This document shows, piece after piece, positions 9,670-14,127 of a stretch of DNA of 64,000 bases. The stretch lies in sequence record MZ234025.1, one strand, 5' to 3'. The position numbers and the translations under genes were made by a program. The stretch is from Escherichia phage vB_EcoM-172859UKE1. The notes beneath the pieces were generated by a model, which saw only the letters and a program-made list of their open reading frames with translations, did no database searches and was not told the origin of the DNA. Numbering within the stretch: the stretch's first letter is position 1; every line of letters starts with the position of its first letter.

Positions 9670-10251
9670 ATGACATGTCAATCTGAACTTCAAGAACGCG
9701 AATACCTAACAAATCTGATTGATAGCAAATTCACCCGCCAAGAACAAAACATTCTCTGGGCCTGCACCGATTCTAAGGAAGACCCGGATTTCCACTATGA
9801 ATTAGACCATCTTGTTCGTAAGCATATGACTTCTACAGTGCCAGTAGAACTCTACCGTGGTGTAACTCCAGAAGAAGTAGAACGTCTTTCCCTTCTTTCT
9901 GTGGGATGCCATTGGTCTCCTGGACGAGTAACATCGTTCACAACTGATTTCAGTACAGCTCGTCAATTCTCCGGGAGATGGGAATATCAGACGTACACTA
10001 TTCTTAGTCTCAGGAATGCTCCATTCATTTTTGATTACTACCAAAACATGGTTAACATTGTACTTGCCGGAAAGAACCCTAAGCATGTTATGGAAGAAAC
10101 GCGTGTTGACGTCCTAGATATGATTGAATCTGAACAAGAATACATGGTCTCAGGTATCTCTAGATTTGAGATTGTGGAAATTGAAGAGTTAGAGTATGAC
10201 CCTTTGTCTCGAGTATACAAAATCATTCACTTAAAGATGTTGAATTTTTAG
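9670..10251 (+). CDS. ADP-ribosyltransferase, ModA/ModB family (paralog 1)
   Basis: R-S-E class motifs: YRG, STxxS-like FTTDFS, E-x-E (EQEY); tandem with a paralog; T4 synteny (modA/modB near dda). Confidence 0.6.
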   Translation: MTCQSELQEREYLTNLIDSKFTRQEQNILWACTDSKEDPDFHYELDHLVRKHMTSTVPVELYRGVTPEEVERLSLLSVGCHWSPGRVTSFTTDFSTARQFSGRWEYQTYTILSLRNAPFIFDYYQNMVNIVLAGKNPKHVMEETRVDVLDMIESEQEYMVSGISRFEIVEIEELEYDPLSRVYKIIHLKMLNF

Positions 10252-10308: not shown

Positions 10309-10917
10309 ATGTTTATGCCGTATAACGAGTGTGAAATTGAAGAAATGGTTCGTCGTGCTCAAAACCCCGAATATCAAGATGTATTGCAGTACGAAATTGA
10401 TAGTCAATTCAGCGACATTGAACAAAGTGTACTGTGGCAGTGTATGGAAAACAAGCCAGACTGTATTCAACAGGAGTTAAGTTCAATCGTTCGTAGAAAT
10501 TGGACGTCTTCTGTTCCTGAGACAATGTATCGTGGAATCTCTAAGAAAACTATGGCCACACTCGATGATAAAGGTATTGGTAGTATTATTAAATTTGACA
10601 GAGTAATGAGCTTCAGCCCAGTGTTCGGTGTAGCACGTAACTTTGCTTCGTATAATTTTTACGGAACATTTAATATGTTCTGCATCAAAGATGCACCATT
10701 TGCTTTCAACTTCCGTGAACATATGCTTAATATGATTCTGGCTGCACCATCTTGTGAGTTCAATGGAGCTTTCCCTGAAGCGACAAGACGGTCTAATGCT
10801 AGACTTATATCTGACGAATGTGAATTTATGCTCCCTATAGGGACTACACTGCGTGTAGATTCTATTATTCAAGATGGACGTTATACAATCTGGAATCTGT
10901 CTATTGTCAGTTACTGA
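10309..10917 (+). CDS. ADP-ribosyltransferase, ModA/ModB family (paralog 2)
   Basis: Shared blocks with 9670 ORF: VLWQC, SSVPETMYRGI, DAPFAFNF...MLNMILA, ECEF. Confidence 0.6.
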   Translation: MFMPYNECEIEEMVRRAQNPEYQDVLQYEIDSQFSDIEQSVLWQCMENKPDCIQQELSSIVRRNWTSSVPETMYRGISKKTMATLDDKGIGSIIKFDRVMSFSPVFGVARNFASYNFYGTFNMFCIKDAPFAFNFREHMLNMILAAPSCEFNGAFPEATRRSNARLISDECEFMLPIGTTLRVDSIIQDGRYTIWNLSIVSY

Positions 10918-11069
10918 CTGAATTGGAATAACCGGATGGAACTCAGAACCATTATAACACATAAAAAATTAAAGCATTTTATGAAAAAAGAGTGTACACT
11001 ACCTGAGGGCATGATATTATAAGCTTATCAGCTAAATGACCTAACGTCCGTAAGACAGAGGAAAATATT

Positions 11070-11816
11070 ATGTTGTCAAATAATAAAATTAACAAAATCA
11101 ATCGTCGTCTTGACCACACCAGAGCTTCTGCGAAGAGACGCTCTAAGGATTTTAACTTAGACTTTAATTACCTTAAAAACATTCTTGATCAAAAGGTCTG
11201 CGCTTACTCAGGTGAATCTTTTAATAACTCTGTTGAAGGTGAGAAATTATCCTTAGAACGTTTTAATAATGATATCGGCTACATTAAAGGTAATGTTATC
11301 CCAGTTAAGAAAAAATATAACACGGCTCGTTCTGATTTAACATTAGAAGAACTTATTGAGAAACGTGATGCCATTGCAAGACGTATCGCTAATCCTTCCG
11401 CCCGTAAAGTAGAGAAACTTAATCTCGACGAGAAGAAATGGGCCCAAATTAAAAAGGTTTATGGTACTATTTTAAAAATCCGAGCAAAACGTGAAAATCG
11501 TGTTAAGCATATGGCAAACATGATGAAAAATCAACCTTTATCTAACGAATCTAAACTTAGAATTGTTGCTTTGAAAGCACGCATTAATGGCTCACATCAA
11601 GCAGAAGGCCATGAACTTACTAAACTCAACGTTCTTCTTAAAGGCTCTGACTGGAAAACTAAAACTAAATTAACTGACGCTGAATCGCTTTTCGATACAT
11701 ATGATAAAGTTATCCAAGGTCTGCAACGTTTTGAAAAGATTGGTTTCATTGGTAAATTAAAATTGAAACGTGGCTTACCACTTAGCGCATCATTATTCCA
11801 ACTGATTAAAGGTTAA
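11070..11816 (+). CDS. Srd-position protein with N-terminal degenerate HNH-like motif
   Basis: CAYSGESF...LSLERFNNDIGYIKGNVIPV...N resembles the C.YCG...IDRID..GY..NV motif of phage HNH endonucleases but lacks the Cys ligands; basic helical C-terminal half. Confidence 0.45.
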   Translation: MLSNNKINKINRRLDHTRASAKRRSKDFNLDFNYLKNILDQKVCAYSGESFNNSVEGEKLSLERFNNDIGYIKGNVIPVKKKYNTARSDLTLEELIEKRDAIARRIANPSARKVEKLNLDEKKWAQIKKVYGTILKIRAKRENRVKHMANMMKNQPLSNESKLRIVALKARINGSHQAEGHELTKLNVLLKGSDWKTKTKLTDAESLFDTYDKVIQGLQRFEKIGFIGKLKLKRGLPLSASLFQLIKG

Positions 11817-11818
11817 TT

Positions 11819-12130
11819 ATGGTTTATGTATATGCAATAGTTTATCGAGATATGGAAGGATTTACTGTCCCGGTTCCACTTGATGAGCATCGTCCTGCAG
11901 TATTTTTTAGAAAAGATATTGCAGATAAAGTTTTCGATACTTTGAAAACACAGTATAAAACGGATTTAAAAATGGGAGTTCTAAGAATGGTCGAAACTCC
12001 GCGTAAGTTCTGGTTTAATAAGCTTGAAATGAAACACGTTAAACTAGATGCGGAGACGCAAAAATTGTATCAACGAATCCTGGACACAGGACGTATTGTT
12101 AGTATTCCAATTGCAGGGACTTTACGATGA
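11819..12130 (+). CDS. hypothetical protein (103 aa, dda.1 position)
   Basis: ORF tightly packed between neighbours; stop overlaps dda start. Confidence 0.4.
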   Translation: MVYVYAIVYRDMEGFTVPVPLDEHRPAVFFRKDIADKVFDTLKTQYKTDLKMGVLRMVETPRKFWFNKLEMKHVKLDAETQKLYQRILDTGRIVSIPIAGTLR

Positions 12131-13440
12131 CATTTGATGATTTGACTGAAGGCCAGAAAAACGCCTTCAACGTTGTTATGAACGCTATTAAAGAAAAGAA
12201 ACATCACGTAACTATTAATGGGCCTGCTGGTACAGGTAAAACAACCCTTACTAGATTCATCGTTGAAGCCCTTATTTCTTCTGGAGAATCAGGTATTATT
12301 TTAGCAGCCCCTACACATGCTGCTAAAAAGGTTCTAAGCAAACTTGCGGGTCAAGAAGCATCGACTATTCATAGCATTCTTAAAATCAACCCAACTACAT
12401 ACGAAGAAAACGTATTATTTGAACAGAAAAAGGTTCCAGACTTAGCCTTGTGTCGTGTACTGTTATTTGATGAAGCGTCAATGTGCGACCGTTCTCTGTT
12501 TAAAATAATGTTAGCTAGTATCCCTAAATGGTGTACAGTAATTGGAATCGGCGACCGATGCCAGATTCGTCCGGTAGACCCAGGCGAATCAACTGCGTAT
12601 CTAAGTCCTTTCTTCACTCACAAAGACTTCGTGCAATGCAACCTTACAGAAGTTAAACGTAGCAATGCACCAATTATTGATGTTGCGACTGATATTCGTA
12701 ACGGCAAATGGATTTACGATAAAGTAGTTGATGGGCACGGTGTTCACGGATATACAGACCTTAAATCGTATATGATGAACTATTTTAACGTCGTTAAAAC
12801 TCCTGAAGACCTTTTCGAAAATCGAATGATGGCATTCACAAATAAGTCGGTGGACAAGTTAAATTCAATTATTCGCCGAAAACTTCTTGAAACAGAAAAA
12901 CCATTTATTAAAGACGAAGTCATTGTTCTACAAGAGCCGTTTACTAAGACATATAAGCTAGATGGTAAAAATATGACCGAAATGCTTTTCAATAACGGTC
13001 AATTCGTTCGTATTCGAGATGCTGTAGAAACTTCTACATTCGTTAAAGCACGTGGTGTTTCAGGCGAATATATGATACGATACTGGAATCTTACAGTAGA
13101 AACGTATGGGGATGATGAAGAATACATCCGCGAAGATATAAAGGTTATTTCTTCTGAAGAAGAGCTTTATAAATTCAATTTGTTTTTGGCTAAGACCGCA
13201 GAAACATACAAATTTTGGAATAAAGGTGGTAAAGCTCCATGGAGCGAATTCTGGGATGCTAAACGTATGTTCACTAAGGTGAAGGCACTACCAGTATCAA
13301 CCTTCCATAAGGCCCAGGGTATGTCTGTTGACACGGCCTTTGTTTATACACCGTGTATCCATTACGCCGATTCAGAATTAGCTAAACAGTTATTGTATGT
13401 CGGCACAACTCGTGGTCGGTTTGACGTCCATTTTATTTGA
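12127..13440 (+). CDS. dda: Dda DNA helicase (SF1B)
   Basis: Walker A GPAGTGKTT; helicase motifs; length as T4 Dda. Confidence 0.9.
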   Translation: MTFDDLTEGQKNAFNVVMNAIKEKKHHVTINGPAGTGKTTLTRFIVEALISSGESGIILAAPTHAAKKVLSKLAGQEASTIHSILKINPTTYEENVLFEQKKVPDLALCRVLLFDEASMCDRSLFKIMLASIPKWCTVIGIGDRCQIRPVDPGESTAYLSPFFTHKDFVQCNLTEVKRSNAPIIDVATDIRNGKWIYDKVVDGHGVHGYTDLKSYMMNYFNVVKTPEDLFENRMMAFTNKSVDKLNSIIRRKLLETEKPFIKDEVIVLQEPFTKTYKLDGKNMTEMLFNNGQFVRIRDAVETSTFVKARGVSGEYMIRYWNLTVETYGDDEEYIREDIKVISSEEELYKFNLFLAKTAETYKFWNKGGKAPWSEFWDAKRMFTKVKALPVSTFHKAQGMSVDTAFVYTPCIHYADSELAKQLLYVGTTRGRFDVHFI

Positions 13441-13449
13441 GAGAAAATT

Positions 13450-14127
13450 ATGAGCACTGATGTTATTATAGATTTTGAAACATTCGGCAATACATCAAAA
13501 GCGGCTGTTATTGACCTTGCGGTTATTGCATATAATTCCGACCCTGAAGTTGTTGAATCATTTGAAGAACTTGTTCAACGAGGTAAGCGAATTAAATTTA
13601 ATTTAGCTTCTCAGAAAGGGAAGCGAGTTTTCGCTAAATCCACTATGAAATGGTGGAAAGAACAATCGGCTGAAGCACGTAAAAACTTGGCTCCGTCTGA
13701 AGACGATGTCACTACGCTTGAAGGCATTAAAATCTTTTTAGACTATTGCCGAGCTAATAAAGTTGACCAATGGAAATCACAGATGTGGTGTCGTGGTATG
13801 AGCTTTGACTTCCCGATATTGGTCGATTTGATTCGTGACCTCTATCGTGATGAAGGTGTTCCTGAACCAGAGATTGATACTGATAAATTAGAACCGGTTA
13901 AATTCTGGGCTCAACGTGATATTCGTACGGCAATCGAAGCTTACTCGTTGACACGAGGATTAAGTATGTGTCCATTACCGATGGGTACGCTAAAAGGATT
14001 CGTTGCCCATGATAGTATTCATGATTGTGCTAAAGATATTTTGATGTTAAAATATGCTCAGCGTTATGCGCTTGGTCTTGAAGATGTCCCTGAGAATCCT
14101 GACCCGTTAAGTGTAAAACAGCGATAA
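13450..14127 (+). CDS. dexA: DexA exonuclease A
   Basis: DEDD-like N-terminus (IIDFETFG), T4 synteny after dda. Confidence 0.8.
   Translation: MSTDVIIDFETFGNTSKAAVIDLAVIAYNSDPEVVESFEELVQRGKRIKFNLASQKGKRVFAKSTMKWWKEQSAEARKNLAPSEDDVTTLEGIKIFLDYCRANKVDQWKSQMWCRGMSFDFPILVDLIRDLYRDEGVPEPEIDTDKLEPVKFWAQRDIRTAIEAYSLTRGLSMCPLPMGTLKGFVAHDSIHDCAKDILMLKYAQRYALGLEDVPENPDPLSVKQR

Follow-up and report, generated by a model that had tools for sequence, protein, structure and literature searches.

The srd gene of phage T4 is an early gene. Its product is described, in papers that cite Qi et al. 2015 for the result (PMC4980113, PMC7430671, PMC13232886), as binding RNase E in its N-terminal, catalytic half and speeding the decay of host mRNA. 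No more than three phage proteins, Srd among them, have been reported to act on the RNA-decay machinery of the host (PMC4980113). In the classification of His-Me finger proteins, group 20 was founded on the restriction enzyme PacI. This is a group without a Pfam model and without a catalytic histidine, the job of the latter being done by a tyrosine of the omega-loop between the two strands (PMC5714182). In PacI itself there is no catalytic His, Tyr substitutes for it, and the metal is bound by one Asp and one Asn (PMC4081073). Here, we connect the two proteins through the Srd of Escherichia phage vB_EcoM-172859UKE1 (sequence record MZ234025.1). The stretch of DNA analyzed, called the window below, is 64,000 nucleotides long and encodes srd on the + strand at 11070..11816. 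We are confident that residues 1–108 of this Srd (11070..11393, + strand) form a PacI-type His-Me finger (beta-beta-alpha-metal) domain of the HNH superfamily, as judged by remote homology through intermediate sequences and by predicted fold.

The identity of the gene is clear. It is a real open reading frame (ORF) of 248 aa plus a stop, with a Shine-Dalgarno sequence, GAGG, readable 8 nt 5' of its ATG at 11058..11061 on the + strand. Over its whole length, the protein corresponds to PHROG 1400, "Srd anti-sigma factor" (residues 3–248 on profile positions 2–249 of 251, E 1.4e-99) and is 68% identical to the T2/T4-type Srd at 100% coverage and the same length. Tblastn with the protein finds matches in 1167 phage records. 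The Srd proteins of the RB69-like phages ST0, mobillu and LH01 are at least 98.8% identical to it, and the phage that it belongs to is an RB69-like (Mosigvirus) T-even phage, with this protein as its Srd orthologue. Alignment A1, comprising 26 Srd orthologues down to 39% identity, was made around it. The initial annotation, made by a model from the letters alone, had placed an ORF with a degenerate HNH-like motif in the srd position, and the ORF list, the synteny and PHROG 1400 bear this out.

For the N-terminal domain, lines of evidence from sequence and from structure agree. Residues ~9–106 cross-match PHROG families labeled "endonuclease", "HNH endonuclease" and "endonuclease VII" (E 3.6e-18 to 7.7e-11). 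A word-indexed protein search with the N-terminal domain alone returned two matches and was too insensitive, so an exhaustive search with the A1 profile was used instead, over 1.84 billion representative proteins (representatives at 50% identity). It retrieved 5159 representatives at E <= 0.001, with 345 at E <= 1e-10. Seventy-five diverse domains from this search, filtered to <55% identity before selection, make up alignment A2. When the A2 profile is run against all PDB sequences, PacI appears at E 1.4e-5, and hhalign of A2 with PacI gives a probability of 95.4% (E 2e-8). The intermediates that link Srd to PacI were retrieved with the Srd profile at E <= 1e-13. At the matched block, PacI reads CGYCG...VDRSDSFEGYSPQNARLACFICNRIK, and Srd residues 43–95 read VCAYSGESFNNSVEGEKLSLERFNNDIGYIKGNVIPVKKKYNTARSDLTLEEL, in agreement with the initial annotation. 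The canonical Gme HNH nickase also appears with the A2 profile, at E 0.021, with its "mDH" aligned to "leR" and the CN..K helix aligned as well. The full-length AlphaFold2 (AF2) model of Srd has a predicted local distance difference test score (pLDDT) of 87.5. It begins with a two-helix subdomain (helices 4–23 and 32–39). The beta-beta-alpha-metal core lies at residues 60–89 (11247..11336, + strand), as placed by the secondary structure of the models and the gap-free PacI alignment; it consists of a strand at 60–64 (LSLER), a loop with G70-Y71, a second strand at 76–80 (VIPVK) and a helix from 81 that carries N84 and R87. Eighty-nine viral structure models match the domain at Foldseek E <= 0.001. 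The initial annotation had called this stretch HNH-derived on its resemblance to a C.YCG...DR.D..GY..N...C..CN..K block. With the PacI E value and the hhalign probability just given, the resemblance goes beyond chance, and profile and fold evidence agree on a His-Me finger of ~108 residues. Srd does align end to end with the T4-type Srd, yet its fold is related to that of HNH proteins, so the idea of an HNH derivation survives that comparison. It may be added that some structural neighbors in BFVD carry the name "HNH endonuclease", that the Srd orthologue of Acinetobacter phage Lazarus is annotated "putative HNH endonuclease", and that a six-frame scan of the 64-kb window found no second copy of the Srd N-terminal domain.

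The alignment to PacI is informative at the level of single residues. Srd 62–89 lies on PacI 91–118 without a gap for 28 residues, both in the profile search and in hhalign (PacI is numbered here by position in the PDB chain sequence). This puts E63 on D92, R64 on R93, G70-Y71 on G99-Y100, N75 on N104, K80 on C109, Y83 on C112, N84 on N113 and R87 on K116. Upstream of the core, C44 aligns with C63 and S47 with C66. The codons of E63-R64 (11256..11261) stand at the positions of the canonical HNH D-H, the metal-ligand acid followed by the general-base His. PacI has Arg at the position of that His, and Srd likewise has R64. Y71 (11280..11282) matches PacI Y100, which is the sole tyrosine in the PacI loop between the two strands. 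N75 (11292..11294) is the middle Asn of the H-N-H motif, and N84 (11319..11321) is the metal-ligand Asn in the helix. Thus, from the metal-ligand pair of PacI, the Asn is present as N84, and Glu63 stands where PacI has Asp. C44 (11199..11201; all of these codons are on the + strand) is the sole remaining Cys of the four that make up a PacI-type zinc site, with S47, K80 and Y83 at the other three positions.

The conservation of these residues is strict. C44, R64, N75 and N84 are each present in 75/75 of the A2 domains. Tyr is found at position 71 in 74/75, and in 304/305 motif instances among the gathered proteins; Lys or Arg is found at position 87 in 70/75. Position 63 is divided between Glu (48/75) and Asp (27/75). 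Within Srd proper, E63, R64, Y71, N75 and N84 are unchanged across the 26 orthologues down to 39% identity, and also in distant Straboviridae. The zinc site has fared otherwise, the Cys pattern being C--- in 64/75 of the A2 domains, C-C- in 9/75 and CCCC in 2/75. By sequence, then, the right comparator for Srd is the PacI group and not the Mob/HNH_3 endonucleases that the initial annotation had proposed. The PacI group is naturally without a catalytic His and works with a tyrosine of the loop instead. The initial annotation had all of the metal-ligand Cys, along with the Asp/His positions, replaced. That is too strong: C44 is kept, the change from Asp to Glu63 is conservative, N75, N84 and Y71 are kept, and the reference motif has no His to lose. 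The further claim that the domain is catalytically dead is not supported either. As far as sequence can tell, Srd keeps the active-site positions of PacI, with R64, Y71, N75 and N84 retained and an acidic residue at 63, and has lost three zinc Cys; that it is a dead relic is not shown.

Two side observations belong to the zinc site. C44 is invariant in 75/75 domains even though the other three zinc ligands are absent in 64/75, and packing, residual metal or redox chemistry and an active-site role are all possible for it. At the position of PacI Cys109, 116/305 motif instances have His, in a homing-endonuclease-like clade (...NVQWVHKDIN.MK), where Srd has Lys. In these proteins, the His could be standing in as a ligand, or it could be a second catalytic residue.

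The domain family to which Srd belongs, counting the 5159 representatives, has no Pfam or NCBIfam model. The first ~100 positions of the A1 profile are found in other contexts besides full-length Srd-like proteins. In one, the domain sits at the C-terminus of proteins of ~190 residues; in another, tandem domains follow zinc-ribbon-like CxC...SCGC leaders; in a third, 2–4 copies occur in long eukaryote-like proteins. There are also rare members with a complete CxxC...CxxCN, such as P0162 (CYYCG...GIDRYDNDKGYVEGNVVPCCTECNMLK). The choice of acid at position 63 was counted over the 305 motif instances, a Srd-like layout being defined as the domain first and then >=90 residues. Glu is found in 124/126 proteins of Srd-like layout, and Asp in 109/116 proteins with a C-terminal domain. 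The Srd orthologues of Escherichia, Acinetobacter, Shewanella and Morganella phages all have the Glu form, CAYSGE...(S/T)(L/Y)ER.... One relative of the Asp type lies in a 177-kb T4-like contig between the RNA ligase and rIIB genes, and another adjoins HNH_3 and GIY-YIG/NUMOD3 genes. By their architecture and genomic setting, the Asp-type relatives look like free-standing homing endonucleases of T4-like phages. Because close relatives of the domain have this homing-endonuclease-like architecture and setting in T4-like phages, a domesticated origin is plausible: the Srd domain may be a recruited homing-endonuclease domain, and the fixed place of the Srd orthologues before dda fits this as well. 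The initial annotation had spoken of a possible domesticated homing-endonuclease relic; the domestication remains plausible, but "relic" in the sense of a dead enzyme is not borne out.

Among the gathered proteins, P0086, P0142, P0147, P0167 and P0180 (430–850 residues) have 2–4 Glu-type copies (WRMSLERxNN..GY..NC.L.A.EFN) that alternate with CxxC...CxxC ribbons. They look eukaryotic or giant-viral in origin, which is consistent with the PacI group having giant-virus members (PMC5714182). In P0159 (280 aa), the domain is fused to a C-terminus like that of deoxynucleoside monophosphate kinases (PHROG 139, E 1.7e-8).

Beyond the domain, the AF2 model has a disordered linker at residues 111–116 and helices at 121–153, 159–191, 203–222, 226–233 and 242–247. 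The isoelectric point of residues 109–200 is 10.5; thus, the basic helical C-terminal region to which the initial annotation saw the domain fused is present. The two long basic helices, 121–153 and 159–191 (11430..11642, + strand), are predicted by the model to form an antiparallel coiled-coil hairpin. In A1, residues 121–191 are weakly conserved in sequence and differ in length between orthologues. A conserved C-terminal helical module follows at residues 203–248 (11676..11813, + strand, from A1), with the consensus ...YDKxIQGLxRFExxxFIxKxKLKxGLPLxASxFxLIxG and conserved columns at K231, G235, P237 and L238. It is kept in the orthologues of Acinetobacter and Shewanella phages, and we take it as a candidate partner-binding module. 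Foldseek and PDB sequence searches found generic coiled coils only for the tail. Two short proteins also came from the exhaustive profile search. In P0107 (126 aa), the match to the C-terminal module of the T4-type Srd is confined to the last 58 residues, the 68 before them being unrelated; the protein has the appearance of a srd allele, chimeric or with an internal deletion, in which the module is kept and the His-Me finger is absent. P0121 (86 aa) is a Srd fragment with a great many R->C, S->F/L and A->V substitutions, as would be expected from C->T damage or deamination in the reads that it came from.

A history and a mechanism can be proposed from these relationships. The most likely source of the Srd domain would be the free-standing homing-endonuclease-like genes of T4-like phages. 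In the Srd lineage, the Cys4 zinc site would have been lost with C44 left over, and the metal-binding Asp would have become Glu; the other members of the PacI constellation (the Arg that stands where the His was, the Tyr of the loop and the two Asn) would have stayed unchanged. By orthology with T4 Srd, the protein would bind the N-terminal half of RNase E and accelerate the decay of host mRNA. The His-Me finger would be the module that contacts nucleic acid, its pocket for metal and phosphate holding RNA and possibly nicking it, and the helical part of Srd would make the contact with RNase E. Taken as a whole, we think it somewhat probable that Srd is an RNase E activator with a nucleic-acid-facing His-Me finger, a functional metal/phosphate pocket and a helical RNase E contact. 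That the catalytic set is so strictly conserved speaks against a mere scaffold, and three things speak against a stand-alone nuclease: the lost zinc site, the Asp to Glu switch and the reported dependence on RNase E.

Several observations weigh against an RNase E activator of this kind or against the homology on which it is built. A Pfam scan of Srd found no family, HNH models included, at E up to 10. The A1 profile, made from Srd alone, found coiled-coil noise and no HNH protein among PDB sequences, and hhalign of A1 with PacI gave 3.6%, which is not significant. The link from Srd to PacI, therefore, depends on intermediate sequences plus predicted structure. The Cys4 zinc site of the PacI group is not present in Srd, 3/4 of the Cys being gone. 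The switch from Asp to Glu tracks the Srd-like architecture almost perfectly and could mark a changed or lost chemistry. The host mRNA decay that depends on Srd is reportedly absent once RNase E is inactivated, and this dependence argues against Srd alone cutting those mRNAs. Two further scans were uninformative: no NCBIfam model matched Srd, and PADLOC gave nothing usable. Measured against the curated criteria for canonical HNH proteins (Pfam HNH, HNH_3 and Endonuclease_7, and a catalytic His), Srd falls outside, with Arg at the His position.

The alternatives differ in how much of the old enzyme they leave in Srd. The strongest of them, which we rate as a real possibility at rather less than even chance, is that metal binding and cutting have both been lost from the HNH-like domain, which serves only as a folded scaffold for contacts with proteins, such as RNase E, or for noncatalytic RNA binding. 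The zinc site with 1/4 Cys left fits this, as does the specificity of the Asp to Glu switch for the Srd-like architecture. Neither need be decisive, in that many active HNH domains, such as those of colicins and Cas9, have no zinc site, and in the Vvn nuclease a Glu precedes the catalytic His, so Glu at that place is compatible with an active site. A domain reduced to binding also agrees with the Srd effect running through RNase E, as far as it is related in PMC4980113 and PMC7430671, and noncatalytic His-Me fingers are known in Smad MH1 and in the nuclease-like domain of Enpp (PMC5714182). However, in those two the His is gone and so is the Tyr that corresponds to it, and Srd retains R64, Y71, N75, N84 and an acid at 63. 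That same full PacI-type constellation, shared with the homing-endonuclease-like members of the family, can be carried further, to Srd as a Tyr- and metal-dependent endonuclease acting on RNA or on host DNA. His-Me finger nucleases leave 5'-phosphate ends and RNase E prefers 5'-monophosphate substrates, so that such ends could feed RNase E, and the "RNase E stimulation" would in part be substrate priming. But nuclease activity of Srd was never reported, the Glu and the missing zinc site may reduce activity, and host mRNAs are said to be stable with RNase E inactivated; we consider an active Srd nuclease improbable. We give about the same low credence to a particular form of it, in which Srd is a zinc-less, Tyr-using phosphodiesterase that nicks host RNA or DNA, or links to it transiently via Y71, and so makes 5'-phosphate entry sites for RNase E.

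Two other explanations would do away with the nuclease ancestry or leave it beside the point. One is that the motif is merely HNH-like, on a domain of unrelated origin. The identity between Srd and PacI is 17%, and profiles of Srd alone fail to reach the HNH families, both of which suit a chance resemblance. The transitive profiles do not, since the intermediates come in at E <= 1e-13 and their profile reaches PacI at 1.4e-5 and 2e-8; nor does a gap-free alignment of 28 residues that puts each PacI catalytic residue on an invariant Srd residue. We regard chance as hardly credible. The other is the inherited name, by which Srd would be an anti-sigma factor or sigma-70 decoy that mimics part of RpoD and acts on RNA polymerase. 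In its favor there are inherited labels only: PHROG 1400 "Srd anti-sigma factor", PHROG 4592 "decoy of host sigma70" and GenBank product names. No Pfam sigma-70 domain was found in Srd, and no sigma factor among the PDB sequence matches, at E up to 10 in either case; the best BLASTP alignment of Srd with E. coli RpoD covers 27 residues at E 0.10, the comparison of the Srd family with RpoD by hhalign has a probability of 0.15%, and both of the weak RpoD matches fall within helices of the His-Me finger domain. With the Pfam, PDB profile, BLASTP and hhalign comparisons all nonsignificant, similarity to sigma-70 was rejected, and we hold a sigma-directed role to be very unlikely. The only sigma-70 matches, nonsignificant ones, pair Srd 2–28 with RpoD 353–379 (E 0.10) and Srd 88–121 with RpoD 569–613 (E 4.6). 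Within the domain, these matches fall on the first helix and on the post-core helix, the second match extending through the linker to 121, and the name Srd may historically go back to them.

The surroundings of srd are those of a T-even phage. Upstream are two ORFs of the ModB/ModA type, at 9670..10251 (193 aa) and 10309..10917 (202 aa). These are tandem paralogues and are the counterparts of two LH01 genes annotated "RNA polymerase ADP-ribosylase". Downstream are a small dda.1-like ORF (11819..12130), the Dda helicase (12127..13440) and DexA (13450..14127). Placed between modA and dda.1/dda, srd has the identical order annotated in the near-identical Mosigvirus phage LH01, and srd also precedes dda in Acinetobacter, Shewanella and Morganella phages. 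The 152-bp gap between modA and srd contains a promoter-like site at 10993..11020 on the + strand, TGTACA-16 nt-TATTAT with a TG before the -10, that was picked up in a scan for the sigma-70-type consensus. Promoter-like matches in the region are no more numerous than in shuffled sequence, and the site is only a candidate for an early promoter.

The gene and the fold family are not new. Three points do appear to be: that the N-terminal third of Srd belongs to the PacI type, that its active-site residues are intact, and that Asp and Glu are split by architecture; in the library searched, no paper linking Srd with HNH or PacI was found. Automated annotation had given hints of an HNH link in the PHROG cross-matches, the label in phage Lazarus and the BFVD names, and the finding would overturn nothing established. 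Databases still name Srd an anti-sigma factor, a name for which we found no sequence signal. The PacI-type assignment is the first structural handle on Srd. Point mutants at E63, R64, Y71, N84 and C44 would separate binding of RNase E, binding of RNA and cutting from each other. The work also exposes a very large domain family without a Pfam or NCBIfam model, cleanly split between Asp in homing-endonuclease-like and Glu in Srd-like architectures, and Srd is possibly a textbook case of a selfish nuclease recruited for host takeover. If Srd were an active nuclease after all, the 5,000-plus unmodeled relatives would make up a large class, so far unrecognized, of PacI-type nucleases that do without zinc, spread over phages, giant viruses and eukaryotes.

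Set beside the known systems, Srd is closest to T4 Srd (PHROG 1400), of which it is the end-to-end orthologue, equal in length and in the same modA–dda.1/dda position, with the same N-terminal motif as in the T4-type sequence P0013. Srd here is the RB69/Mosigvirus-type allele; it is not known to differ from T4 Srd in function, and RNase E binding would be expected by orthology. With PacI (PDB 3ldy/3m7k, group 20, PMC5714182), it has in common the motif register C..xG ... acid-R ... GY ... N ... N..K/R, and both have Arg for the catalytic His, the loop Tyr and the Asn metal ligand. It differs from PacI in having Glu for the metal-ligand Asp, in having lost 3/4 of the Cys from the zinc site that brackets the active site, and in its 140-residue basic helical tail; it is also an early host-takeover protein of a phage, whereas PacI is a restriction enzyme. 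The free-standing homing-endonuclease-like proteins (for example P0214, P0297, P0120 and P0162; PHROGs 3322, 3118 and 1035) have the same domain, at a Srd-profile E of 1e-13 or better. They share with Srd the conserved C, R, Y, N and N and an occurrence in T4-like phage genomes. Unlike Srd, they keep Asp (109/116), have the domain either C-terminal or as tandem copies that follow CxC..SCGC zinc-ribbon leaders, in a few cases have all four Cys (P0162), and lie at variable, intergenic-like sites beside other homing-endonuclease genes; in Srd, the domain is N-terminal and of the Glu form, in a fixed syntenic position. The canonical HNH proteins (Gme HNH 4h9d, Hpy99I 3fc3, McrA and the Cas9 HNH; PF01844, PF13392, PF02945) are farther off. 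There is a weak profile match to Gme HNH; unlike the canonical proteins, Srd is without the catalytic His, a Pfam HNH match and the CxxC...CxxC. Smad MH1 and the nuclease-like domain of Enpp are precedents for a nuclease fold reused in binding (PMC5714182); neither the His nor a corresponding Tyr is left in those two, but in Srd the Tyr and the metal-ligand positions are still there, with Glu for Asp. RapZ is a precedent for RNase E being activated by contact with its N-terminal domain (PMC7430671), by a protein whose fold is unrelated to that of Srd.

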